Shown here: positions 1,981 through 30,841 of the stretch, one piece after another
Position numbering within the stretch: position 1 is the stretch's first letter
Layout: the number at the start of each line of letters is the position of its first letter
Made by a program: the position numbers and the translations under genes
Notes under the pieces: model-generated
What the model saw: only the letters and a program-made list of their open reading frames with translations
What the model was told of the DNA's origin: nothing
Database searches by the model: none
Sequence record: PP261279.1
Reading direction: 5' to 3' (one strand)
Source: Escherichia phage ECP2303
Length of the DNA stretch: 64,000 bases

Positions 1981-2253
1981 TTACTTATGGCGGCAGAATT
2001 CAAGCGTTTTTAATTGATAATCTTCCTCAGCCTGGAGTACGACCGCCTCGATCATTTCGTTGGCATTGTTAAAGCCATAACCTTTAGCGAACTCATCCGC
2101 GCCACCTTCGTGATCATGTTCTGCGTTCATCGCTTCCACAAAATGGAATTCCAAATTGTTGAGGTAGGGGCTTGATGTTCCGTCCTCTTTTTCGATGAGA
2201 TCCCAAATAGCATTAAAACGTGATTCGACTTCTTGATTAATCCAGCTTGACAT
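1981..2253 (-). CDS. hypothetical protein
   Basis: 90-aa ORF; RBS ggagagagg upstream of ATG. Confidence 0.7.
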   Translation of the reverse strand: MSSWINQEVESRFNAIWDLIEKEDGTSSPYLNNLEFHFVEAMNAEHDHEGGADEFAKGYGFNNANEMIEAVVLQAEEDYQLKTLEFCRHK

Positions 2254-2470
2254 AGTGTTTTCCTCTCTCCTGGTTGTTGTGTGGGCACTTTTGCCCCTTC
2301 AAGATAAATGTTACCTCACCCCATGGCAGATGTCAACGGTTTTTATAGTTCTTATATGACAGGCAGGCCCGGTGATTGTCTCCCCCTGTTCCCAAGTGCC
2401 GCCCGTTTAATAAGAATAGCAAAAGGGGCCGAACAAGTCAACCCCAAAATCAGTACCAAAACACTTTTAT

Positions 2471-3400: not shown

Positions 3401-3491
3401 TGTGTCTATCCTCTTTCTGCTACGTTTAAGGCGGCGGTAACCGCCTGTTTATGCTTTGTTGGTTAATTTTCAGGTATCTGTATAAATTAAA

Positions 3492-3707
3492 CTATGCTGT
3501 ACGCTCAACTATAACAACGGTTTGGGGGATCTCCCCTTCCACCACTAGTAAGGCCTTTTTCTGCGTGATAGATATCTTTACCCGTTGCAGCGTGGCGGTG
3601 AAGTCTTTCATTTCGTCACGCGGTGTTTTAGTGCAGTACCAGATCTCAGGCTTGCCGATCTGTAAGTTGCGTAAAAATTCCGTTTTGCCTGTTTTGTTAG
3701 TGATCAT
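3492..3707 (-). CDS. hypothetical protein
   Basis: 71-aa ORF; RBS gtgagg upstream. Confidence 0.6.
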   Translation of the reverse strand: MITNKTGKTEFLRNLQIGKPEIWYCTKTPRDEMKDFTATLQRVKISITQKKALLVVEGEIPQTVVIVERTA

Positions 3708-5189: not shown

Positions 5190-5228
5190 CGCCAAAATAA
5201 TAAAGGCCATGCAACCGCATGGCCTTTA
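5190..5228 (-). terminator. rho-independent terminator
   Basis: Minus-sense hairpin aaaggccatgcggttgcatggccttt followed by attatttt, downstream of the CDS ending at 5263. Confidence 0.5.
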
Positions 5229-5262
5229 TGTGATTATATTGCTGTAGGCCCTGCCTGGGGCC

Positions 5263-5613
5263 TTATTTTGCATTCTTGCCTGTATTGCCGCCACGGTACC
5301 AGCGTTTGCGGTGAAAATGGTAATAATCACCCTCGGCATTAAACATCAGATGATTTTCAATAACCAGCTTACGAAGGTGGGCCGGATCTTGTTCCATTCT
5401 TGCCAGATTCCGGCGGCTGTTACGTAAGCGTATAAATTCCATATTCAGGCCGTTGATTGCAGCATGGATGTCAAAGTAACCACCTTTGAGACGTTCACGC
5501 ATGGCGTTAAGCTCAACACAATATACAGATTTCTCACAAATCAAGGTATTAGCTAGGGCGCGGACCTGGGCAAGGGGGTTAAGCTCATTAAGGTAATATA
5601 GTTTGACTTTCAT
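5263..5613 (-). CDS. hypothetical protein
   Basis: 116-aa ORF. Confidence 0.65.
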   Translation of the reverse strand: MKVKLYYLNELNPLAQVRALANTLICEKSVYCVELNAMRERLKGGYFDIHAAINGLNMEFIRLRNSRRNLARMEQDPAHLRKLVIENHLMFNAEGDYYHFHRKRWYRGGNTGKNAK

Positions 5614-11310: not shown

Positions 11311-11508
11311 TTATTTTTTATTAAACCAGTGGTTGATCTGGCCTTTTGTCAGGGCGCAACGATTAAGCTGTTGCCGAGTATAGCTCTGACCGCGACGGAA
11401 TTTATAAAGGCCTTGCCCGTTGTTGATGGTTACATCCACCCGGCAAACCATTTGATCGGTGACCACCTGGCGAGTGTTGCGACGTACTTTGATTCCGTAG
11501 GCGTTCAT
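11311..11508 (-). CDS. hypothetical basic protein
   Basis: 65-aa ORF; RBS agagaggataaaaaatc-ATG. Confidence 0.6.
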   Translation of the reverse strand: MNAYGIKVRRNTRQVVTDQMVCRVDVTINNGQGLYKFRRGQSYTRQQLNRCALTKGQINHWFNKK

Positions 11509-11561
11509 GATTTTTTATCCTCTCTGTTAATTGGTGTGGTGTTGTTCACCTTGCGAGGATA

Positions 11562-11590
11562 AGAATAACAATAACTGTACGAGCTGTCAA
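11562..11590 (-). promoter_or_regulatory. sigma70-like promoter
   Basis: Minus-sense TTGACA-17 nt-TATTCT upstream of the gene starting at 11508. Confidence 0.35.
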
Positions 11591-11770
11591 CCATTAGTTA
11601 GAATTATTTTTTTTGGGCAGAATTCTCCAGCCGCCGCCCCTACCAGGTTAACCATCGTTTTTTCGTACTCTTCTTTATGTTCCAACGCTCCCGCCATAGC
11701 CTTTTCAACCAGGGCGATAGCCTCAGCGTCATTAATCGCTACATTTCCAGGGGATCAAATTACCTTTCAT
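11588..11770 (-). CDS. possible small gene with frameshift or non-ATG start
   Basis: Strong RBS gaggagg then ATG opens a 12-codon frame (MKGNLIPWKCSD); the +1 frame continues as protein-like ...NDAEAIALVEKAMAGALEHKEEYEKTMVNLVGAAAGEFCPKKIILTNG. Confidence 0.2.
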
Positions 11771-11960
11771 TTTTGTACCTCCTCTTCAATTGTTACCTGC
11801 CCTATAGCATAGGCCTACCAGGTTTGCAAGCTTTCACTCTCTCCTACCTGGTCAGTCAGGTCCTGCCAGGTTGGCCCCGCCAGGTTGCAACGGTTAGCGC
11901 ATCAGGTTAGAATTTTTTTGAAAAGTGTTGACAGCGGCCCCGCCAGGTGGCACAATATAC
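11640..11960. repeat. dispersed CCAGGTT iterons plus two AGGTTAGAATT-T-run elements
   Basis: ccaggtt at ~11643, 11818, 11866, 11880 (caggtt 11903, ccaggtg 11945); aggttagaatt with T-run at ~11596 and ~11905. Confidence 0.45.
11928..11958 (+). promoter_or_regulatory. candidate sigma70-like promoter, plus strand
   Basis: TTGACA-17 nt-CACAAT; followed by the GAGACAA-CACCGGGG motif. Confidence 0.35.
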
Positions 11961-11989
11961 CTATCGGAAGGACGGCAGGCACCGGTGAC

Positions 11990-12009
11990 GGGGGAGACAA
12001 CCACCGGGG
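11990..12009 (+). promoter_or_regulatory. conserved motif GGGGGAGACAACCACCGGGG
   Basis: Close copies at 12126-12144 (same strand), 2368-2386 (opposite strand) and 351-370 (degenerate). Confidence 0.45.
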
Positions 12010-12071
12010 ATGGGCGCTGCATAAAATGAGAACGGTTATCATTATCATTTAAAAATTTATGCAAAAAATCC

Positions 12072-12102
12072 TTGCTTTCTTTGTCCTGTGTGATACTATA
12101 AT
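12072..12102 (+). promoter_or_regulatory. candidate extended -10 sigma70 promoter, plus strand
   Basis: TTGCTT-16 nt-TACTAT(AAT) with TG one nucleotide upstream of the -10. Confidence 0.4.
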
Positions 12103-12125
12103 AACAAGCCGGGGCAACAGGGGCC

Positions 12126-12144
12126 GGGAGACAATCACCGGGGG
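12126..12144 (+). promoter_or_regulatory. conserved motif GGGAGACAATCACCGGGGG
   Basis: Second tandem copy, ~35 nt downstream of the 12072 promoter, followed by gagaatgattatcatt as in copy 1. Confidence 0.45.
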
Positions 12145-12217
12145 TGCCCGTTATTCTGCAAACGAGAATGATTATCATTCAAAATTCTAAATGAGAACTT
12201 TTCGCATTTCATAAATT

Positions 12218-12231
12218 TAGTTAGCATGCTA
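12218..12231. promoter_or_regulatory. perfect 12-bp palindrome TTAGCATGCTAA (operator-like)
   Basis: Read directly in non-coding DNA. Confidence 0.3.
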
Positions 12232-12304
12232 ATTACCTACCGTGACAATTCTATATAAAATAATACCTCCTTAAATATTTCCATATACAAATTTTAAAAA
12301 TCCA

Positions 12305-12480
12305 TTTCCGAAAACGAAAAATCGATTTCGTCCCCAAAAATTTCAGGTCGAGCTCCGGAACGATTTCCAGAAAATCTGATTCAGAAAACGAAAAACAGAT
12401 CGAGTACTAAGAAATTTATCGAGAAAAATTTTCAGAAAATTCAATCTTTGAAACGAAAAACAGATCGAGTACTGAGAGAG
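12305..12480. repeat. three degenerate ~66-74-bp tandem repeats
   Basis: Units begin gaaaacgaaaaa at ~12310, 12384, 12450; units 2 and 3 share cagatcgagtact(a/g)ag. Confidence 0.55.
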
Positions 12481-12631
12481 ATGTATCAAAACCTACTGAG
12501 AATAATGGGCTTATTGTTATAAAAGGTCAAAGGTAAGCTGGGAAAGTTCTGGTAGAAGGGTGAGGGTATGTGCGGAAAATCTGGAATAGTAACTTAAAGT
12601 ACGGTGCGAACGATAGAATGAGCAGCACATC

Positions 12632-12739
12632 TTATCGCGCCTGTCTTGAAAAATCCATTTTAGTTTTCGATCCATTTTCTGATTTTCTAAGAATTTTAAA
12701 ATATCCGGCCAGGTAAAATATCAAAAGGAGGAAATCCAT
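12632..12739 (-). CDS. small membrane peptide (35 aa) with stem-loop over its ribosome-binding site
   Basis: TAAGGAGG RBS 9 nt before ATG; MDFLLLIFYLAGYFKILRK...; the SD GGAGG can pair with CCTCC in codons 3-5. Confidence 0.35.
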   Translation of the reverse strand: MDFLLLIFYLAGYFKILRKSENGSKTKMDFSRQAR

Positions 12740-12784
12740 TTTAGAAATCCTCCTTATACTTGATGTGCCAGGGATTTTCAAGTA

Positions 12785-13114
12785 TCAACTGTCTTTGTTT
12801 TTAGGCTTGTGCATACGTAGAGGTATGGTCTTTATAACATTCCATCTACCCAACCCCTCCCAGTTCCAATTGTGAGCGTGATACCCGGTTATGCATGCAC
12901 TGCTGGCGTGATCATAAGCATAAGAGAACGCTATGCGAACCAAGTGGGGCCAGTCCCTCCACGGCTGTGGACCGTAAGCCTTCCTCCAACACCGACACAA
13001 ACTAATTGTCTCAAGAATAGGTAGAATAACAAATCCATATACCGCCACCAAAATGGTCAGAGCAATGATTGTCAGGAATACATACCCTGCAGTTGAAATA
13101 ATGATCTCTGTCAT
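12785..13114 (-). CDS. membrane protein
   Basis: 109 aa; hydrophobic N-terminal helix AGYVFLTIIALTILVAVYGFVILPIL. Confidence 0.6.
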   Translation of the reverse strand: MTEIIISTAGYVFLTIIALTILVAVYGFVILPILETISLCRCWRKAYGPQPWRDWPHLVRIAFSYAYDHASSACITGYHAHNWNWEGLGRWNVIKTIPLRMHKPKNKDS

Positions 13115-13546: not shown

Positions 13547-13566
13547 ACTTTATCTCCTGCACTTTC

Positions 13567-13899
13567 TTAAGGTAACCAGTAAACAATTTCGCCTTTCAGT
13601 TCCATGTCGTTACCGACATAGATTTTCCAGCCATCCATTTTAGCCACTGCAGGAGTGAAGTCCGTAGAACCACTAACCTCTTTCCAAGTCCCGTAGTCAG
13701 GTTGCCAGATATAGAATCCACCTTCCTTGTCCCATGCTCCATATACCACATCGAGCAGGTTGCCCATTGCAACAATAGTAGGCCGTGGGAATAATACATC
13801 TACAGATGCGCCACAATTTCGGGTAGATTTTAAATTACAATCCCAAAAGATGTCTGCCAGTGTGGCGGCGATAGCTTTACGTCTTTCTAATGTTACCAT
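13567..13899 (-). CDS. hypothetical protein
   Basis: 110-aa ORF. Confidence 0.6.
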   Translation of the reverse strand: MVTLERRKAIAATLADIFWDCNLKSTRNCGASVDVLFPRPTIVAMGNLLDVVYGAWDKEGGFYIWQPDYGTWKEVSGSTDFTPAVAKMDGWKIYVGNDMELKGEIVYWLP

Positions 13900-20752: not shown

Positions 20753-23530
20753 TTAGTGACAATCGCCCCAGTTACGACCGCACAAGTATTCACCTGTGAT
20801 CTGGAACGGAACGCCCATCATTTTAGAAGCCTGCCAGAAGCAATGCACCACCATTTCGCCCACAGGGCTCCAGATAAGTTCAAGCTTTCCGTCATCGTTC
20901 AAGATAGGATCGTATACCGTATTTCCGTCCTTGTCAACCATTTCGTTTCCATCCTCATCTTTGCGTGCCTTTTTGTACTTATGACCGTCGAACACATGAA
21001 GTTTAGCCTCCTGCTTGGCCTTAAATGTTTCCAGCTCTTCAATTGTGTCGAAGGTGTATACGGTTTTATACTTAGGTGTGTCAGGCACTTGAAGCTGATA
21101 TTCGTCATGGTAATAAATAATACGACGAACACCTTCATCATACCATCCACGCTTCACCATTTGGTGGTGCATGAGGATTCCGACCAAGTCGCACAACGAT
21201 GCACCGCCATTTTGCTGATATGCATTAAGCAAAGAGTGTTTAGAGCGGGTCCAAATGGCATGCCCGTCAAAAGAGTAGATAAATTTCTTACCTGTTGCTT
21301 CCCAGAATTTCTCCAGATCCTCTTTACGCCCCTTAAGGCCTGGGTTGGCATCCCAGAGAGCATCAATTACTCTCTGTCCAAGTTCTGGAGAGATATCTAG
21401 CATATCTGCAACTTTATCTTTTTGTGCCCCGTACATAACCCCATATGTGACAGGCTTACCATCGTTACGAGACACCTCTCTACCTGCTACTTTTGTATAT
21501 GCCTCAGCATTGTTTTGGTGCGCGTCCCCGTTACTTACAACATCATAATACAGACCGTTGTCAAACTCAAAGGCACCCCAGGCCCCGATGAGCTGCTCTA
21601 AGTTGGACCCGTCAATACCGATCTCAAAGTATCCCGGAGGAACACCCCACAGACTACGCATCTCTTTACCCATAACCACTTTAGGAGATGGTTTAGGCAT
21701 GTTTGCACAAATACTATGTTTCTGTCTGGAAGTGTTTGTTAATCCAGAACTTTTAGCAGGAAGCTTGTGGTCAATCTTCAAACGTGGATGATTAAGAAGA
21801 CCAGTATCAACCTTATCTTCCTTGATTGGATCAAGGACCGATCTGCGGTTTCGCAATGATAACCACAAAACGATATCTTTAGCCATCTCTCCGTTCAATT
21901 TTTCAAGATTCGGGCACAGGTGTCCAAACGTATCTTTCAGTTGCGGAGAAGTAATAAGCGCTCTGGCTTTTCTACGTATCTTCCCAAACACTTCCTTTTT
22001 AATCCTTTCTGAGTTAGGGAAGCTTCGGAACTTATGCACAGTTGTCTGGAACTTGGCATCAGTTTTGTTCCAGAAGTTGATAATTAGATCACAATACTCT
22101 GACTCTAAAAGCTCGTCCATATATGCATATACTCGTGCATCAACATCTGCATCAGGTAAAGCTTTCTTCTTACTATCCTTAGTTACATCCTTAGTTCTCC
22201 ACATTGTTGGGAGCCAACCAGCACTGATCAGGTATCGCTTGATGTCGTCCTGATTGCTGATTTTCATAGGTATCTTGCAGTCAGGCATTCGCTTCTGCTG
22301 TAGGTCACTTATCGCCTGATCCATCAGCTCTTTAGGTAAAGGGTGTGGTGTAGAAGTTCCTTTGATATACCCCCTCAAGAAATCAGCCATCTTATCGGGG
22401 TCTTTACAGCCCATCTCTTCACACCATTTTATCCCCATCTTACTTACATCCCCTGTGGAGGTAAATGCTCGCTTAGGAGGGGCTTTAAATTCTAAAGCAC
22501 TCATGTCTACAGGATAGCCAAGCTTGTCTTTTAACCATTTCCAACCATTATTGGAGATTGTCCCATCTTGGTTAAACGGCTTTTCAGGGAACTTAGGCCG
22601 TTGAGACATTGATAGCTCTTTTAAAGGAAGTTGTGGTTCAACACGATCAGCGATCTCTTTCATCCACGCATCGCAGCGGTCACGTAAAGCAATAGCCCCA
22701 TCTATGTCGAAATACACCCCCTGTCGAGCCTGCAGCTCCATCAGGAAGTGCTGTAACATGCCTCGGCGTAATGCGTTCTTCCAGGTGATCTTCTTGAAGC
22801 CTTTCGGCTTCTCTTTGGCAGGATCGTACATAAAGTTCTGCATGTCAGATTTGCCGTAGAATACACCTTTTGATTCAGCTACCAACTCCTTCCAGAGCAA
22901 CTCCTGAATGATAACGTCCTCGAACACACGATCCACATACTTCCACAGCGGAAGCTCACGCCAGTCATCGATTTGAACTTTCTGGTTACCAAGGGCATAG
23001 CCCCATGCCATAAGGCCATGAGGCCCAACAGGCTGCATTTTCTTGGTAACTGGATTGAATACTGCGTCCGGACAACCTTTTGGCAAAGGGCGGTCAGGCC
23101 ACAAGATTCGACTCATCGCTAACGTATCAAACAGATTAACCTGGTGGTCGTTGATAGTTCCCATGCATTTAGGATCACGGAACATATCAAAATGAATACC
23201 GGATAATCTTTCCATCAGCATAAAGTCGTAACTGTAGCAGTTATGGCAGTTCAAAGCCGTAGGTGACCAGTCTGAATTGCCTGTAAGCCAGCCTTCCAAC
23301 TCTGAAAAATCTGCTATGCGAGCCTCAAAATCTGTATAAAGGGTCTTCTTTGCCAGAATGAAGTTCTTAGCTTTCTCCACATCCTCTTCAGAGTAGTGTG
23401 TGCGGTCATTTAGGGGAAGGAACAGCATAAAACGGTTCTTATTCAGCTCTTTAAACAAACCGCAGTGATAATAAAGATCTGGGTCTTCCAGCAAGCCAGA
23501 GGCCTCAAAATCGAACGACCACATGCTCAT
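20753..23530 (-). CDS. DNA polymerase, family A, with N-terminal 3'-5' exonuclease domain
   Basis: 925 aa; Exo I-like FDFEASGL; motif A-like GIDGSNLEQL; motif B-like RNDGKPVTYGVMYG; motif C-like IIYYHDEYQL; RBS aaggaga. Confidence 0.9.
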   Translation of the reverse strand: MSMWSFDFEASGLLEDPDLYYHCGLFKELNKNRFMLFLPLNDRTHYSEEDVEKAKNFILAKKTLYTDFEARIADFSELEGWLTGNSDWSPTALNCHNCYSYDFMLMERLSGIHFDMFRDPKCMGTINDHQVNLFDTLAMSRILWPDRPLPKGCPDAVFNPVTKKMQPVGPHGLMAWGYALGNQKVQIDDWRELPLWKYVDRVFEDVIIQELLWKELVAESKGVFYGKSDMQNFMYDPAKEKPKGFKKITWKNALRRGMLQHFLMELQARQGVYFDIDGAIALRDRCDAWMKEIADRVEPQLPLKELSMSQRPKFPEKPFNQDGTISNNGWKWLKDKLGYPVDMSALEFKAPPKRAFTSTGDVSKMGIKWCEEMGCKDPDKMADFLRGYIKGTSTPHPLPKELMDQAISDLQQKRMPDCKIPMKISNQDDIKRYLISAGWLPTMWRTKDVTKDSKKKALPDADVDARVYAYMDELLESEYCDLIINFWNKTDAKFQTTVHKFRSFPNSERIKKEVFGKIRRKARALITSPQLKDTFGHLCPNLEKLNGEMAKDIVLWLSLRNRRSVLDPIKEDKVDTGLLNHPRLKIDHKLPAKSSGLTNTSRQKHSICANMPKPSPKVVMGKEMRSLWGVPPGYFEIGIDGSNLEQLIGAWGAFEFDNGLYYDVVSNGDAHQNNAEAYTKVAGREVSRNDGKPVTYGVMYGAQKDKVADMLDISPELGQRVIDALWDANPGLKGRKEDLEKFWEATGKKFIYSFDGHAIWTRSKHSLLNAYQQNGGASLCDLVGILMHHQMVKRGWYDEGVRRIIYYHDEYQLQVPDTPKYKTVYTFDTIEELETFKAKQEAKLHVFDGHKYKKARKDEDGNEMVDKDGNTVYDPILNDDGKLELIWSPVGEMVVHCFWQASKMMGVPFQITGEYLCGRNWGDCH

Positions 23531-23588: not shown

Positions 23589-25667
23589 TTAAAAAGGTGT
23601 TTCGTCGTCTTCAAAACCAGGAACGTGGTTAGAGGACGGATCATCATACTGAAGATCTTCCTGTGTGTCAACAGGGTTAACAGCAGGAGTTATAACCTTA
23701 TCAGCCACAACCTTGCCCACAGGTGTTTCTACAACTGCATGCTCCTGATCCTCAAACATAGCTTGAGGTCTCCAAACAACCTCTCCACCTTCCCCGTCTG
23801 TAAACATCTGCATCTCTTTATCCCAATACCAATTGCTGGCATCGTGGAACTTGCCTGTGTGGGGATCCATAACTAGGGTGTCCGCAATACCTAAGGTTTT
23901 TGCTGGGCGGTTTTTAAGACCTACCAGCCGGACACGTCCACGGGAACGATCCACCATCTCCTCTGCCTCTACCCCGACAACCACCCAGCTAAGTTGCTCC
24001 AATCCGGCACTACCGCGAAGGTTCTCTTTTCGCACAGGGTACCAGAAAGGTAACGGATTTCCATCCTTATCCTTCGGAGGTACAATCTCTGTGCGCTTCA
24101 GGTGAGCAATCACCAAGATAAACACATTAAACTGCTTACAGAACGCGGCTAGTTGAGTCATAGCCATGTCAAGCTCTTTACGCTCATCCTTAACATTAAG
24201 CCCTGAAATCACCATAGACAAGTGATCCAGCACAATGTAACGGCAGTGATACAGGCACACCATTTGTTTAAGCTTAGTGATCAGCTCATCTACAGGGATG
24301 GAGCCGAAATGCTTGAACACTTTGATTTTTCCGGCCTTGGCCCAAGATTGATGAATCTCAGCGTGCTCCTGATCGGTCAGGAACTGACTGGGGTCTTCAA
24401 CAAACTCTTTAACATCAAACCCCAGCTGGTTAGCGTACAGAGAGTTGATTGCTTCCTCAGGATCCTCTTCAAGGTGAATCAGGCACAGGCGATCATCCTC
24501 TTCATAATCATCAGCTTTAGGGCATGTTGGGTCCATCAAGTATCTTGCAATGCAATGTTCCAGCTTCTTGGCTACAGTTGTTTTACCACCGCCAGACGGG
24601 CCTGTCAGCATCATCAAGGTGCCTTTGTGGAGTCCTTTCAGCATCTTCTGCAGTTTAGGGAACTCTGCACTAATATCCACGCCATTGGAAGTCTTCTTAC
24701 GAAGAGATTCAATGGAGAAGTCTTCTAAATCAGATACAGCATCAGGCACATATTTGACTGGGTGACGGAACATGTTGACAATATCTTCCAGCTTTTTAGC
24801 CTTCAGCATGTCACGAATATCTTTTACACCATCAGGGTCGTTTACCTCACCTGGGTATTCCACGTGGTAAACGTTGTCAGCCATCAAAAATGCTGCGATA
24901 TTATGCGTAGCTTCAACACCTTTGATAACGTGTTTTTGCTTCTCTACCTCGTTAGCTGCATCGTTGTCCATTGCAAGGACTACTGTTCCGTAGCTACGGA
25001 TAAATTTCTCATTGTTCGCAAAAGTGTCTACGGCGTTTGCACACCCGCAGTTAATTCCGACAAAAGGCAGGCATGGTTTTCCTGCCAGATCACCGCCGTT
25101 GATAACTGCATCAATCCCATCCTGGACTTCTTTAGCCCACTGCTTCACCTTCGCTGGGGCTTTAGCATTGGTGAGAATACCTTTTACTTGTACCTGATAT
25201 GCAGCCTGCCACGCTGCAATAACATCTCCTTCCCCCTCACAAACGTTAATCTGCTTGCGGTTGTTGGAGGATGCACACAGCTTTTGACCAAACATCTGGG
25301 AGTTGGCCTTTACTATGCCGACAACCGAGAAATGGCCCCTTTGCTCTTTAGGGATTGTCCAGTCACGCTTTTTAAAGCCAGATAGATTACCGTAGCGGTC
25401 ATAATACGGAAAGTAGGTGGCAGTAACAGTTACGCCATCCTCTTGGGATAGCGATGATCGTACACCAAAATATTGTGCAGCCATCAGTCCAATATTTTGT
25501 TGTGGAACAGGGACAATTTTAGTATTTTCTAAAACAGTCTCTACAGTTTCAACTTCTTTTTCATCACGATAGTCTCGTTTCACACTTCCCCCACTTTTAT
25601 ACTTAGTTGCTTTCGGGTTTGGCTCACCGAAACGGTTGTATGCAGATGCCATGAATTTACTGCCCAT
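23589..25667 (-). CDS. primase-helicase (TOPRIM primase + DnaB-family helicase, T7 gp4-like)
   Basis: 692 aa; TOPRIM-like VCEGEGD and LAMDNDAAN; Walker A LTGPSGGGKTT; VLDHLSMV; IAHLKR; LRGSAGLEQLS. Confidence 0.85.
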   Translation of the reverse strand: MGSKFMASAYNRFGEPNPKATKYKSGGSVKRDYRDEKEVETVETVLENTKIVPVPQQNIGLMAAQYFGVRSSLSQEDGVTVTATYFPYYDRYGNLSGFKKRDWTIPKEQRGHFSVVGIVKANSQMFGQKLCASSNNRKQINVCEGEGDVIAAWQAAYQVQVKGILTNAKAPAKVKQWAKEVQDGIDAVINGGDLAGKPCLPFVGINCGCANAVDTFANNEKFIRSYGTVVLAMDNDAANEVEKQKHVIKGVEATHNIAAFLMADNVYHVEYPGEVNDPDGVKDIRDMLKAKKLEDIVNMFRHPVKYVPDAVSDLEDFSIESLRKKTSNGVDISAEFPKLQKMLKGLHKGTLMMLTGPSGGGKTTVAKKLEHCIARYLMDPTCPKADDYEEDDRLCLIHLEEDPEEAINSLYANQLGFDVKEFVEDPSQFLTDQEHAEIHQSWAKAGKIKVFKHFGSIPVDELITKLKQMVCLYHCRYIVLDHLSMVISGLNVKDERKELDMAMTQLAAFCKQFNVFILVIAHLKRTEIVPPKDKDGNPLPFWYPVRKENLRGSAGLEQLSWVVVGVEAEEMVDRSRGRVRLVGLKNRPAKTLGIADTLVMDPHTGKFHDASNWYWDKEMQMFTDGEGGEVVWRPQAMFEDQEHAVVETPVGKVVADKVITPAVNPVDTQEDLQYDDPSSNHVPGFEDDETPF

Positions 25668-27727: not shown

Positions 27728-29071
27728 TTACTCTAAATCTTCTTCTGAGTCAAGCCTATCTTTCACAACTAAGTTCTGGGCAAGTTTGTAATAACGAAAG
27801 CCCCCACCACCTTGCCAGTTTACAGATTTAGAAATACCACTTTGATCTTCACCATCGATCACTTTTTGCAAGCGTGGAATAATATGGGTATGACAATGAT
27901 CTCCTAGCTCAACCGAGATCCAACGTCTTTTCATCTTGTGAGCTACAGCAGCAGTAGTTCCCGAACCGCCGAATGAATCCAATACTAAATCTCCTTCTCG
28001 CGTACACATTTCTAAAATCCGCTTCAAAAGCGCTTCAGGTTTTTTTCCATTTTTGAAACTAACGCCCCCTTCATTTGCTATTCCATTCCAACTAATGTCA
28101 GTCCAAACATCAGTTATTAGTTCAGCAGGCTGCATCTCACCGTCAATTTCCAAAAGCCTATTGGAATAAAAGACCATTTGCCTACCATTTGCGATATAAA
28201 AGCCTTCGACATCCTCATTTGGATGTACATAAACCTTATCCCTATCTTTCTTTGACTTCTCGATAGTTTCTTTTCTCTTTATTTTGGCACCACCGCCAAT
28301 TGCAACGGATTGAAATACACGTTCTGCATTATCAATTGCAAATTGTGCTAATTCATAATCAAATGTATCAGGCAGTTTTTTCTTGGCTTCTTTTGTATCT
28401 TTATAGCCATTGGCCTTTGCAAACGCATCGGCAATACCGCACCACGTCCAACTTTTATAATGGTCATCTGGGTTTAATAGATATTTGTTATATCCCGTAT
28501 CATACTCTTTAGGTATATAGATTTTGTTAAGTGGTTTCTTGGTACGATCTTTTGCATATACAAGCAAAAAGTTTGCTGTGGAGAAAACTGTAGTTCCTGT
28601 TGCTTTAAAGCCTGAAGGGCAATTTGTAGTCATCGATATGGTATTTAACTGATTTGCACGACCAAAAATCTCGTCCATCAAGACTTTTAAATAAGCCATT
28701 TCGCAGTCATCTAAGTGAACGAATATCACTCCATCATCGCTTAGCAGATTACGAATTATTTCTAATCTGTCCCGCATTAAGCCCAGCCAAATGGAGTGCT
28801 CCAGGCTATCATCGTAGTGCTCAAAATCCCTTCCGGTATTGAATGGCGGGTCTATGTAAACACACTTCACTTTGCCTGCATACTCTTGCTCTAGTGCCTT
28901 CAATGCCAGTAAGTTATCTCCAAAAATCAGTTTATTATCAAAAATATCGTTTTCGGTCACCTTTTTACTGGCGTGATAAGACTTGCTCGAATCTTCTAAC
29001 AAAATGTGAGGCTCTAGCTTTTTGCGCTCGTTCTTACCTATCCAGGTAAGTTCTAATTTGGTTTTACTCAT
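27728..29071 (-). CDS. DNA methyltransferase, beta-class (N6-adenine or N4-cytosine), Type III Mod-like orphan
   Basis: 447 aa; motif IV VYIDPPFNTG before motif I LVLDSFGGSGTTA (beta-class order); N-terminal LIFGDNLLALKAL. Confidence 0.85.
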   Translation of the reverse strand: MSKTKLELTWIGKNERKKLEPHILLEDSSKSYHASKKVTENDIFDNKLIFGDNLLALKALEQEYAGKVKCVYIDPPFNTGRDFEHYDDSLEHSIWLGLMRDRLEIIRNLLSDDGVIFVHLDDCEMAYLKVLMDEIFGRANQLNTISMTTNCPSGFKATGTTVFSTANFLLVYAKDRTKKPLNKIYIPKEYDTGYNKYLLNPDDHYKSWTWCGIADAFAKANGYKDTKEAKKKLPDTFDYELAQFAIDNAERVFQSVAIGGGAKIKRKETIEKSKKDRDKVYVHPNEDVEGFYIANGRQMVFYSNRLLEIDGEMQPAELITDVWTDISWNGIANEGGVSFKNGKKPEALLKRILEMCTREGDLVLDSFGGSGTTAAVAHKMKRRWISVELGDHCHTHIIPRLQKVIDGEDQSGISKSVNWQGGGGFRYYKLAQNLVVKDRLDSEEDLE

Positions 29072-29132: not shown

Positions 29133-29474
29133 CTACTCAAGGTCTTCAGAGTCAAGCTCAAAAAGAATCAAACTGTGCATGCCTGCAGAGAGATCAACAC
29201 ACCCTGCAACAATAAGGGTTTGATAGTAAGGTTCAGCACCCTCAATATCTTCGTTAAAATCCACAACAAGGTAGTCACCTTTGTTAAAGGTGTATTTGTC
29301 CGATGTAAACGCAAAACCTGCCCAGTCACCTACTGCAGGATCTTTATCAGTCACCTTTGTTAGCAGTAGATCTTTTTCACGAGATCTTTTAGTAAAATCG
29401 TGAATCACAACATCCTTCTCTTCAGGAGTCGGATTGCCACACACGTAGTTAACGATATTTCTCCACAAACTCAT
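29133..29474 (-). CDS. hypothetical protein
   Basis: 113-aa ORF; 4-nt overlap with the Dda-like gene. Confidence 0.6.
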   Translation of the reverse strand: MSLWRNIVNYVCGNPTPEEKDVVIHDFTKRSREKDLLLTKVTDKDPAVGDWAGFAFTSDKYTFNKGDYLVVDFNEDIEGAEPYYQTLIVAGCVDLSAGMHSLILFELDSEDLE

Positions 29475-30841
29475 ACGTCCCCCTTTTCTGCTCTAGTTTC
29501 AAAATCTTTCCTGACTTTCTCGTCTAAGCCAGGAAAAGTTGTATTATAAAACTCTACGACTCTCGGGTCAACAATAATATCCACCTCTCTTAATGGACGC
29601 AACAAGTTTATTCCTTGTATCGTCTTAACCCGACTCAAGGCAACATACGTCATTCCGGGAGAGAAAGCTCCGTTCTTTCCGAGGTCCAGGTTGTAACAAT
29701 CTAGCGTAAGTCCTTGACTTTTATGTGATGTTACTGCGTACCCTGATTTCAAAGGGAGTTGCTCATAAGACCCGATCACAACCCTCTCTATGAACTTCTC
29801 CATCTTCCTTTCGGCAATATTGTACCTCTGGGAAGGTTTGTACTCGTTATTCTCCCACAATCTCGGCTCAATTTCAACCTGTGCCCCGTCTTCCAGCTCA
29901 ACTACTACAGATTTGGTCTTGAATTTTACCACTGTGGCGCGTGTCCCGTTGACATAGTACGGAACTTTGTGGGTAGGGTCAACATCGTTTGAGGTTATCA
30001 TAACCTTCATCCCTATCTTCAGCCTCATTTCCTGCTCCACAGGCAGTGTGGAAGGGAACTTACCTTTCATTTTACCAATGTAGGTCTTCTCTGGGGCCTT
30101 GATGGCATCATAGAAACGTCTGTTCACCTCCTCTGCTTGCTTATTGGTGGCACAGATGGTCAAGGCATCTGTTGGGACACCACCATGATAGCAACGAGTG
30201 TTAAGCTCTGCTACAACCTCTTTTATGCGACGACCTTCACGAACACAGTTCAACATTGTGGCGAAGCGAACAGATTCCTGACGGAACTGGTCTACTAAGG
30301 CTATATTGTGAAGATTAAGATCCTCCCAAGATTTTGTATAGCAACACAGATCTGTGTGGTAGAAGTTGAAGTAGGCCTCCTTCTCCATAGAAGAGACAAC
30401 TGGAGGTGCTTGGTAGAAGTCTCCAAACAATAACACCTGAATGCCTCCGAAAGGCTTGTCATTTTTCCGAAGAAAGCGGAGTTTTCTATCCATCTCTATG
30501 AACTTGTCAGCACGGATCATGGAGATTTCATCGATAATTAGGATGGTAAATGCCTTGCTTTTCAGAGGCTTTGCTGTTTTTGCCCTTATTGCTGTCCAGT
30601 CTGACTCCATGCTCACACCTGCGGCAAGATCGAAAGTTCGGTGAGCTGTTGCTCCATTAACGTTTAAAGCGGCTACCCCTGTCGGGGCAACCGTTATGCA
30701 AGAGTCTCCATACATGGACTGGATTATGTTGATAAGATATGTCTTCCCTGTTCCACCAGGTCCACTTACGAAGACATTCTCACCGCTCATGATTGCAACA
30801 AGGGCAGCATCTGTGCCTACATCGTACTGCCCTTTTTCCAT
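29471..30841 (-). CDS. dda: SF1B DNA helicase, Dda/Pif1/RecD-like
   Basis: 456 aa; Walker A GPGGTGKTY; VAPTGVAA; Walker B DEISMI; VTSHKSQGLTLD. Confidence 0.8.
   Translation of the reverse strand: MEKGQYDVGTDAALVAIMSGENVFVSGPGGTGKTYLINIIQSMYGDSCITVAPTGVAALNVNGATAHRTFDLAAGVSMESDWTAIRAKTAKPLKSKAFTILIIDEISMIRADKFIEMDRKLRFLRKNDKPFGGIQVLLFGDFYQAPPVVSSMEKEAYFNFYHTDLCCYTKSWEDLNLHNIALVDQFRQESVRFATMLNCVREGRRIKEVVAELNTRCYHGGVPTDALTICATNKQAEEVNRRFYDAIKAPEKTYIGKMKGKFPSTLPVEQEMRLKIGMKVMITSNDVDPTHKVPYYVNGTRATVVKFKTKSVVVELEDGAQVEIEPRLWENNEYKPSQRYNIAERKMEKFIERVVIGSYEQLPLKSGYAVTSHKSQGLTLDCYNLDLGKNGAFSPGMTYVALSRVKTIQGINLLRPLREVDIIVDPRVVEFYNTTFPGLDEKVRKDFETRAEKGDV

Follow-up and report, generated by a model that had tools for sequence, protein, structure and literature searches.

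What is the function of the non-coding DNA that interrupts the early genes of a virulent phage? This question is raised by a locus at 11510-12785 of a 64,000-nucleotide stretch (hereafter, the window), which was presented as Escherichia phage ECP2303 (record PP261279.1) and corresponds to positions 460-64459 of record PP464953.1 (Escherichia phage ECP2309); the whole-genome figures given below refer to this 136.9-kb genome (also given as 136 kb). The source phage is a Vequintavirus (rV5-like). The region divides a long run of small early genes that lie on the minus strand and have no assigned function, and it is found at 90% identity or more in over 110 phage records. A reading made from the letters alone (the sequence-only reading) had taken the locus to be a replication origin and/or a locus for small RNAs. 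Our results show that ~11776-12785 is a real, conserved, cis-acting control region of rV5-like and phAPEC8-like phages, hitherto uncharacterised. With a probability of roughly 0.45, we read it as a transcription-activated replication origin that would be gated by Fur, the iron regulator of the host. Thus, the origin half of the earlier proposal is retained, on the grounds of anatomy and comparison, and the small-RNA half is not.

Conservation was analyzed in an alignment of 16 Vequintavirus sequences, which are called the relatives below. Comparison with related phages had been suggested as a check, and the core proved to be 0.95-0.995 identical. Three islands of this identity were observed: 11860-12215, which contains the promoters, leaders and boxes (up to 0.995), 12275-12445, which contains the tandem repeats, and 12645-12750, which contains short repeats. 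The identity of the islands equals or tops that of the flanking genes, and the segments that separate them (11775-11850 and 12450-12640) are less constant (0.70-0.83). When 11900-12260 served as the query of a sensitive search, a core was detected, ~12124-12211, that is 80-88% identical in Certrevirus, Seunavirus and phages of Klebsiella, Enterobacter and Salmonella, and ~70-74% identical in Phapecoctavirus, which belongs to another subfamily. This core is unannotated in most of the records listed. The order of the modules is also kept in other genera, being shared by at least five Vequintavirinae lineages and Phapecoctavirus. A promoter is followed by a leader with GAGACAAnCACC and by one to five 19-bp palindromes, which are spaced by ~29-30 bp if more than one is present; then come a third promoter (only in other genera), A/T tracts with three direct repeats, AAACCATTTCGA-type repeats and AAATATCA repeats.

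The 19-bp palindromes are identified in silico as Fur boxes. The sequence-only reading had listed them as "gagaa..ttatcatt" elements at 12025, 12161 and 12190, and their enrichment was confirmed (three matches against 0.10 expected; none of 100 shuffles reached three). Their resemblance to Fur boxes had been missed. Two overlapping predicted boxes, offset by 6 bp, are located at 12025-12043 and 12031-12049 (together 12025..12049), and each matches AATGATAATnATTATCATT at 15 of 18 positions. Two others, 29 bp apart, are located at 12161-12179 (16/18) and 12190-12208 (13/18). When the whole genome was scanned with the Fur consensus, 27 sites with at least 13 matches were found, whereas Markov simulations gave 11.6. 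The highest score of the genome was that of 12161 (16/18), followed by 12025 and 12031 (15/18 each). Three further good matches are present in the terminal repeat (PP464953.1 10, 126 and 144), so that the genome carries six strong sites in two clusters. The phage box consensus, AATGAGAATnATTCTCATT, is a 9-1-9 single-dimer Fur site with one symmetric substitution relative to AATGATAATnATTATCATT. The site models (9-1-9 and 7-1-7 inverted repeats) were taken from PMC2189734, and the 19-bp consensus is that used in PMC7157518.

A weight matrix was then derived exclusively from phage boxes (36 distinct ones) and used to scan 40 kb of E. coli K-12 (600000-640000). All of the top seven matches (10.1-17.8 bits) fell into the fepB-entC, fepA-fes and fepD-entS intergenic regions, which account for 1.8% of the scanned sequence; the best match outside them scored 9.2 bits. 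These three regions are classical Fur-controlled promoters. Furthermore, the two half-sites of the boxes vary independently of each other, which is what a protein site would show, unlike an RNA hairpin. Since phages of different Enterobacterales hosts share one box consensus and differ in the other repeats, the binder is likely to be a conserved host protein. A classical arrangement, in which the boxes would lie over a minus-strand promoter, was considered and rejected, because other genera do not keep the -10-like sequence that separates the boxes. When IMG/VR was scanned with the bare box pattern, the number of matches was close to the chance estimate for a pattern of this length. Two unrelated IMG/VR contigs, L130 (~13560-13620) and L134 (~5190-5270), carry arrays of two or three perfect TGAGAATGATTCTCA palindromes, and L134 also carries TTATCCACA (DnaA-box) repeats. 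Judging by these palindrome arrays, Fur-type boxes are also present in the non-coding DNA of other mobile elements.

The predicted boxes are preceded by sigma70-like promoters on the plus strand, two of which had been proposed earlier. P1 (11928..11956; TTGACA-17-CACAAT with the extended -10 TG) was called by the promoter scanner, and only two of its positions vary among the relatives. P2 (12073..12100; TTGCTT-16-TACTAT, also with the extended -10 TG) was under the scanner threshold, yet it is near-invariant (two variable positions), and homologous promoters are present in other genera. A weak promoter-like site, P0 (11885..11913; TTGCAA-17-TAGAAT), is located upstream of P1. Two "AGGTTAGAATT" elements had been described here; the first actually reads AGTTAGAATT, and the second is the -10 of P0.

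Both P1 and P2 are followed by a leader. The motif GGAGACAAnCACCGGGG, reported earlier after each promoter, was found at 11993-12009 and 12127-12143 as stated (three matches in the window against 0.39 expected). It reads GGAGACAACCACCGGGG in leader U1 (11957..12024, plus strand; nhmmer E 3e-10) and GGAGACAATCACCGGGG in leader U2 (12107..12160, plus strand; E 5e-17), of which the latter is 80-88% identical across genera. The leader is ~45 nt long and G-rich; GAGACAAnCACCGG is its invariant part, which is a sequence and not a helix. A third copy of the promoter-leader cassette, U3, is located elsewhere in the genome (2350..2445, minus strand; E 9e-13) and had escaped the sequence-only reading. 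It consists of the predicted promoter TTGACT-17-TATTCT and a leader with GGAGACAATCACCGGGC (2383..2367), and it is followed by a second promoter and then by an open reading frame (ORF) at 2253..1981. U3 is conserved in Phapecoctavirus and Certrevirus, and in CR3 a box follows it too. With a profile of 31 distinct cassettes, exactly three copies were found in the genome, and the next match had an E value of 3.6. Because the U3 copy feeds genes and not an AT-rich repeat array, the cassette is to be regarded as a transcription module used in two contexts, and not as a part specific to an origin. A terminator-like hairpin (2445..2425) overlaps the -35 of the U3 promoter, upstream of its GAGACAATCACCGGGC leader. 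As for a host source of the cassette, a scan of the genomes of 185,579 species gave only chance hits and one binned phage fragment, and no bacterial chromosome was found to carry the cassette with the box.

In a related lineage, represented by a 136.8-kb gut contig (L174; OLOT01000016.1), a single cassette and a single box on the reverse strand (3490-3660) are followed by four ~60-bp repeats. These repeats contain ACGGTGATT, which is the reverse complement of the cassette core AATCACCG. The idea that inverted copies of the U core act as DNA iterons was rejected as a general one, since they occur only in this lineage.

The conserved promoters point into DNA that is easily melted. The most AT-rich 400-bp window of the genome (12152..12552; 68.5% AT) is a candidate DNA-unwinding element. 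Among the 100-bp stretches of the genome, only two are less stable than 12202-12302 (dG -112; genome mean -133.5, standard deviation 5.7). Both stretches begin right after the P2 boxes. A perfect 12-bp palindrome, TTAGCATGCTAA, is present at 12221..12232 of the window as had been noted, but it is imperfect (TTAGCACGCTAA) in about half of the relatives, and thus it is not kept as a palindrome. The same position may hold the -35 of a weak third promoter, TTAGCA-17-GACAAT.

Three degenerate direct repeats (12297..12477, plus strand) are located in this DNA. Their spacings of 74 and 65 bp and identity of 72-78% agree with the three ~70-bp tandem units that had been proposed, and the units were not called by Tandem Repeats Finder. 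The core, GATCGAGTAC, is found at 12398-12407 and 12463-12472, and that of the first unit is degenerate, so that ECP2309 has two copies and one degenerate copy. In GAP31, KP12, SSE121, L133 and L177, three same-orientation GATCGAG(A/T)AC copies (GATCGAGACC in L177) are 63-78 bp apart, and POP15 has five copies of the core. L058 has three repeats with the same ~70-bp spacing and a different core, and in ukendt the repeats number two to three, are spaced by 48-138 bp and have another core. Such lineage-specific cores are the pattern expected of a site that co-evolves with its binding protein. The phage has at least three DNA methyltransferases (L181 44738-45544; window 27728-29071; L182 9187-9720), one of which is annotated as N6-adenine, and the direct-repeat cores each contain GATC.

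What we infer from this arrangement is that the promoters are active, that the boxes are bound by Fur and that the region is a start site of replication. Host RNA polymerase would start at the tandem rightward promoters P1 and P2 (and possibly P0). Transcription would pass the G-rich leader with GAGACAAnCACCGG and then meet one to three Fur boxes before it reaches the most easily melted AT-rich DNA. The transcripts that run beyond the boxes would open or prime the AT-rich element, as at the T7 primary origin or T4 oriF/oriG. A phage DNA-binding protein would sit on the three ~65-75-bp direct repeats and the short repeats and would recruit the T7-type replisome encoded 8-18 kb to the right. Host Fur-Fe2+ on the boxes would gate or shape the rightward transcription by iron status. 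Features of two kinds of origin are combined here: same-orientation direct repeats with an adjacent candidate AT-rich unwinding element, as in iteron origins, and P1 and P2 immediately upstream of, and pointing into, 12152-12552, as in transcription-primed origins. The replisome genes lie on the same strand and include, in the window, a family A polymerase (20753-23530), a DnaB-like helicase (23589-25667) and a PIF1 helicase (29471-30841). They match the rV5 replisome, which is T7-type (PMC3606486). In the rV5 genome paper, the origin could not be located by skew, and the map shows only a box labelled "non-coding" (PMC3606486).

Several observations weigh against an origin at this position. 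No DnaA boxes were found in the region, GATC is not enriched (4 sites in the region), and the GC skew, which is dominated by transcription direction, does not turn there. No initiator gene was recognised near the region: the ten flanking proteins have no Pfam family, and their PHROGs are only of unassigned function. The boxes are placed at about +54 to +101, whereas Fur boxes normally overlap promoters. The U3 cassette (2350-2445) leads into genes without an AT-rich repeat array. Finally, a gene-poor region of ~2.7 kb at the genome ends contains three Fur boxes and AAATATCA, CCTGAAGAG and GACACTTTT repeats. It shares two motif classes with the region studied here, and this repeat-rich segment is a second candidate for a control region or origin, in place of or in addition to the one studied here.

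The same parts could instead form a transcription-control hub without a replication role, in which a terminator, head-on rightward promoters and a restart promoter split the leftward early operon. The Fur boxes would then couple the early genes to iron, or they would titrate Fur as the copy number rises; titration would derepress host iron uptake for the iron-dependent ribonucleotide reductases of the phage. The genome encodes class I and class III ribonucleotide reductases, and the two clusters of strong Fur-type sites and the U3 cassette in front of genes fit this explanation. So does the divergence of promoters at 11590 (minus) and 11928 (plus). The predicted promoter on the minus strand (11562..11590; TTGACA-17-TATTCT with TG) was called by the scanner, has an A-tract upstream and would restart leftward transcription into the minus-strand gene at 11508. 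The terminator may be a hairpin, AAGGAGGA/TCCTCCTT, at 12725..12755, which is followed on the minus strand by a T-rich tail. Its sole variant among the relatives is G.U on the minus strand and A.C on the plus strand, so that pairing is compatible with the variant only on the minus strand; it is probably the terminator of the upstream leftward gene. However, a hub of this kind does not need direct repeats with lineage-specific cores or an extreme AT content, its rightward transcripts would have no coding target for 26 kb, and the titration step is purely conjectural. We consider a hub alone unlikely, although it is one of the two main rivals of the origin reading.

Another explanation concerns the leaders as RNA. 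P1, P2 and the promoter at 2445 would each yield a short RNA with a conserved single-stranded GAGACAAnCACCGG segment, which would act through base pairing or by binding a protein, for example RNA polymerase, the partner of HK022 put RNA, or a factor of host defence; the downstream repeats would be incidental or parts of the transcripts. The three copies per genome, each directly after a good promoter, are in favor of this idea, and so is the conservation of the leader across genera (80-88%) and to the second subfamily (~70-74%). In most lineages, the motif can be drawn as a loop closed by G/C-rich stems, and a helix closing the unit, AU(A/G)GCGGG/CCCG(U/C)(C/U)AU, is 86.5% paired against 28-54% for slid controls. 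In HK022, put RNA likewise lies directly after early promoters (PMC9378689).

The structural analyses that had been suggested as a check did not bear this out. Covariance models of Rfam 15 were applied at gathering and permissive thresholds: no match was detected in the 64-kb window at the gathering threshold, only chance-level matches appeared at E<10, and none was found in five related loci. RNAalifold gave no consensus structure for 16 promoter-proximal units, and the folds of single sequences were no stabler than those of shuffles (z -1.8 to +0.6). The covariation of the helix was not above that of column shuffles, since 253 of 500 shuffles reached the observed pairing. In addition, the GG/CC variation at 12143-12144 among close relatives is uncompensated, and no plus-strand terminator was found after the units. 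The AT-rich block and the lineage-specific repeats are also left unexplained. These results do not support small RNAs as the function of the region, and we consider this explanation, the other main rival, about as unlikely as the hub.

A different RNA element was observed in Seunavirus, Certrevirus and Phapecoctavirus. In these genera, the first promoter drives an element of ~95 nt (CGCCACCCCACGGCG...GGCGGGGCUAAC...AUCGCCGGUAG; L005 1310-1410, L004 1320-1425, L008 1385-1485 and homologues) with 16 predicted pairs, 5 of which are compensated, and no Rfam match. This element counts in favor of an RNA function. It is absent from Vequintavirus, where its slot is occupied by the second copy of the U cassette, and its covariance model finds no copy in ECP2309. 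The sequence GCCGGTAG(T/C)TCG in the ~95-nt element resembles GGCGGTAGnnTG, which we take to be the RfaH ops element. Pseudo-ToxI antitoxin repeats (36-nt, phiTE) were also considered for the homologous locus and set aside, because in phiTE they are located in a tRNA region beside structural genes.

A packaging, partition or recombination site, with the repeats bound by a terminase small subunit, a centromere-binding protein or a recombinase, is very improbable. The P1 pac site is resembled by the GATC-containing direct-repeat arrays, and the phiWec189 genome (LC739538.1) is linearised at window ~12171, inside the first P2 Fur box; this end probably reflects an arbitrary choice of the place at which a circular assembly was cut. 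In other records, the genome is linearised at other positions, the 459-bp direct terminal repeat lies 11-12 kb away in the ECP2309 record (PP464953.1 1-459 = 136405-136863, with the window beginning directly after it), and it is not obvious why a virulent phage would need partition. Gene decay, or neutral filler that is rich in repeats and resembles promoters by chance, which might be suspected because one gene in the region is frameshifted and annotators call differing small ORFs here, can hardly account for conservation that equals or tops that of neighbouring genes, a module order kept across two subfamilies and motif counts far above those of shuffles.

The frameshifted gene lies at the left edge of the region. 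The locus 11510-12785 had been described as having no convincing ORF over 60 amino acids. Only ~11776-12785 is truly non-coding; at 11594..11775, a small conserved gene (MKGNMIPLENVAINDAEAIALVEKAMAGALEHKEEYEKMMVNLAGAAAGEF...) is encoded on the minus strand. It is 49-61 amino acids long in relatives, is intact in 11 of the 16 and is annotated in FFH2, navn and WalterGehring. In ECP2309, L132 and NHEP1, it is frameshifted by variation in the length of a G-run, so that the residual ORF here is 11587..11697. The frameshift could be a sequencing error or a real pseudogene.

Repeats of the type CC(Y)(R)CCAGGTT are found on the plus strand at 11639, 11814, 11862, 11876 and 11939 (span 11639..11952), the last of them inside the P1 spacer. 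At least five CCAGGTT iterons had been claimed. Only four exact copies are present in the region (11643, 11818, 11866 and 11880), and longer variants bring the family to five or six; in the whole window, 15 exact copies were found against 8.8 expected. In the repeat zone, 11860-11890 is conserved and 11775-11850 is variable. The rightward promoters here (11928-11956) and in L004, L005 and L008 have G+C-rich spacers with CCWGG (a Dcm site) directly before the -10; examples are GCCAGGTGGCACAAT, CCAGGGTCCATAAT and CCTGGGTTATATT. Judged by this pattern, most of the "CCAGGTT iterons" are part of a Dcm-site, promoter-associated arrangement.

To the right of the direct repeats, a variable spacer (12480..12640; 0.70-0.79 identity among the relatives) precedes a conserved block on the plus strand (12645..12750). 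The block contains AAATCCATTT(T) at 12651 and 12732 (another copy is at 12298), GATCCATTTTC at 12669 and AAAATATC at 12698 and 12715. A 35-codon ORF with a Shine-Dalgarno sequence that can be sequestered had been reported here, and both are present in the window: the ORF (12739..12632, minus strand) is made of AAATCCATTTT repeats, and the Shine-Dalgarno sequence AAGGAGGA (12725-12732) can pair with 12748-12755, although the resulting hairpin resembles a terminator more, as described above. However, the Shine-Dalgarno sequence was not found in 8 of the 16 relatives, and the length of the ORF varies. Thus, the ORF is probably not a gene.

No tRNA or tmRNA genes were found. In GenBank, ~16-22 records titled "Campylobacter phage" are Vequintaviruses, 90-92% identical to ECP2309. 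The two that were opened (A142 and C7) are both marked UNVERIFIED, and the host labels of these records are probably wrong.

Phages of the rV5 and phAPEC8 types are isolated widely and have found use in therapy cocktails and in model collections such as BASEL, and their replication origin is unmapped. Our analysis yields a precise origin candidate with a list of its parts. Neither this control element nor the transcriptomes of Vequintavirus nor Fur boxes of virulent phages were covered in the literature searched, and no description was found of predicted Fur operators as conserved parts of the control regions of virulent phages. If Fur binds, phage replication or early transcription would be tied to iron availability, a point relevant to infections of the gut and urinary tract, where iron is limited. 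As a compact regulatory element that is conserved and present in three copies, the promoter-leader cassette is amenable to mutagenesis. A more far-reaching proposal, which we put forward only tentatively and hold to be rather unlikely, is that Vequintavirinae and Phapecoctavirus, a large group of virulent phages of Enterobacterales, have built host Fur operators into the control of replication and early transcription, either for iron-coupled firing of the origin or as a Fur sink (six strong sites per genome) that derepresses host iron uptake and so feeds the ribonucleotide reductases. In that case, the operators would act together with the GAGACAAnCACCGG leader, which would represent a new type of control element close to the promoter.

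Compared with E. coli Fur boxes, the pair at 12025/12031 has the 6-bp offset and overlap of natural Fur clusters. The phage copies differ in that they belong to a virulent phage and are placed downstream of the predicted transcription starts, not over promoters. They are mostly non-overlapping, with a spacing of ~29-30 bp, and at position -4 they favor G (0.61) over the T that is commoner in Fur sites. Compared with HK022 put RNAs, the units are likewise conserved elements of ~50-70 nt directly after early promoters and in several copies per genome (PMC9378689 for put). However, put is defined by two stem-loops, and the phage units have no conserved or covarying stems.

For the proposed origin, two types of known origin serve as models. 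The T7 primary origin consists of the tandem promoters phi1.1A and phi1.1B followed by an AT-rich segment, and T4 oriF and oriG consist of a promoter and a downstream unwinding element with an R-loop primer. The phage studied here likewise has tandem promoters, which point into the most AT-rich 400 bp of its genome, and its replisome is T7-type (PMC3606486). It differs in that its promoters are of the host sigma70 type, that Fur boxes and a conserved leader lie between promoter and AT-rich DNA and that three long direct repeats follow; priming by a transcript is only proposed here.

The other type is the iteron origin, as in lambda, plasmids and PLE with its RepA. The lambda ori has four 19-bp dyad-symmetric O-binding sites beside an AT-rich block. 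Unlike in such origins, no initiator gene was identified near the phage repeats, the repeat period of ~65-75 bp is much longer than that of classical iterons, and the 19-bp sites fit the host Fur consensus and not a lineage-specific sequence. In PLE, non-coding repeats have been proven to be the origin (PMC7145576). As in iteron origins, the phage repeats adjoin an AT-rich block and their cores co-vary with the lineage, and 19-bp dyad-symmetric sites with a spacing of 29-30 bp are located immediately upstream of the AT-rich DNA.

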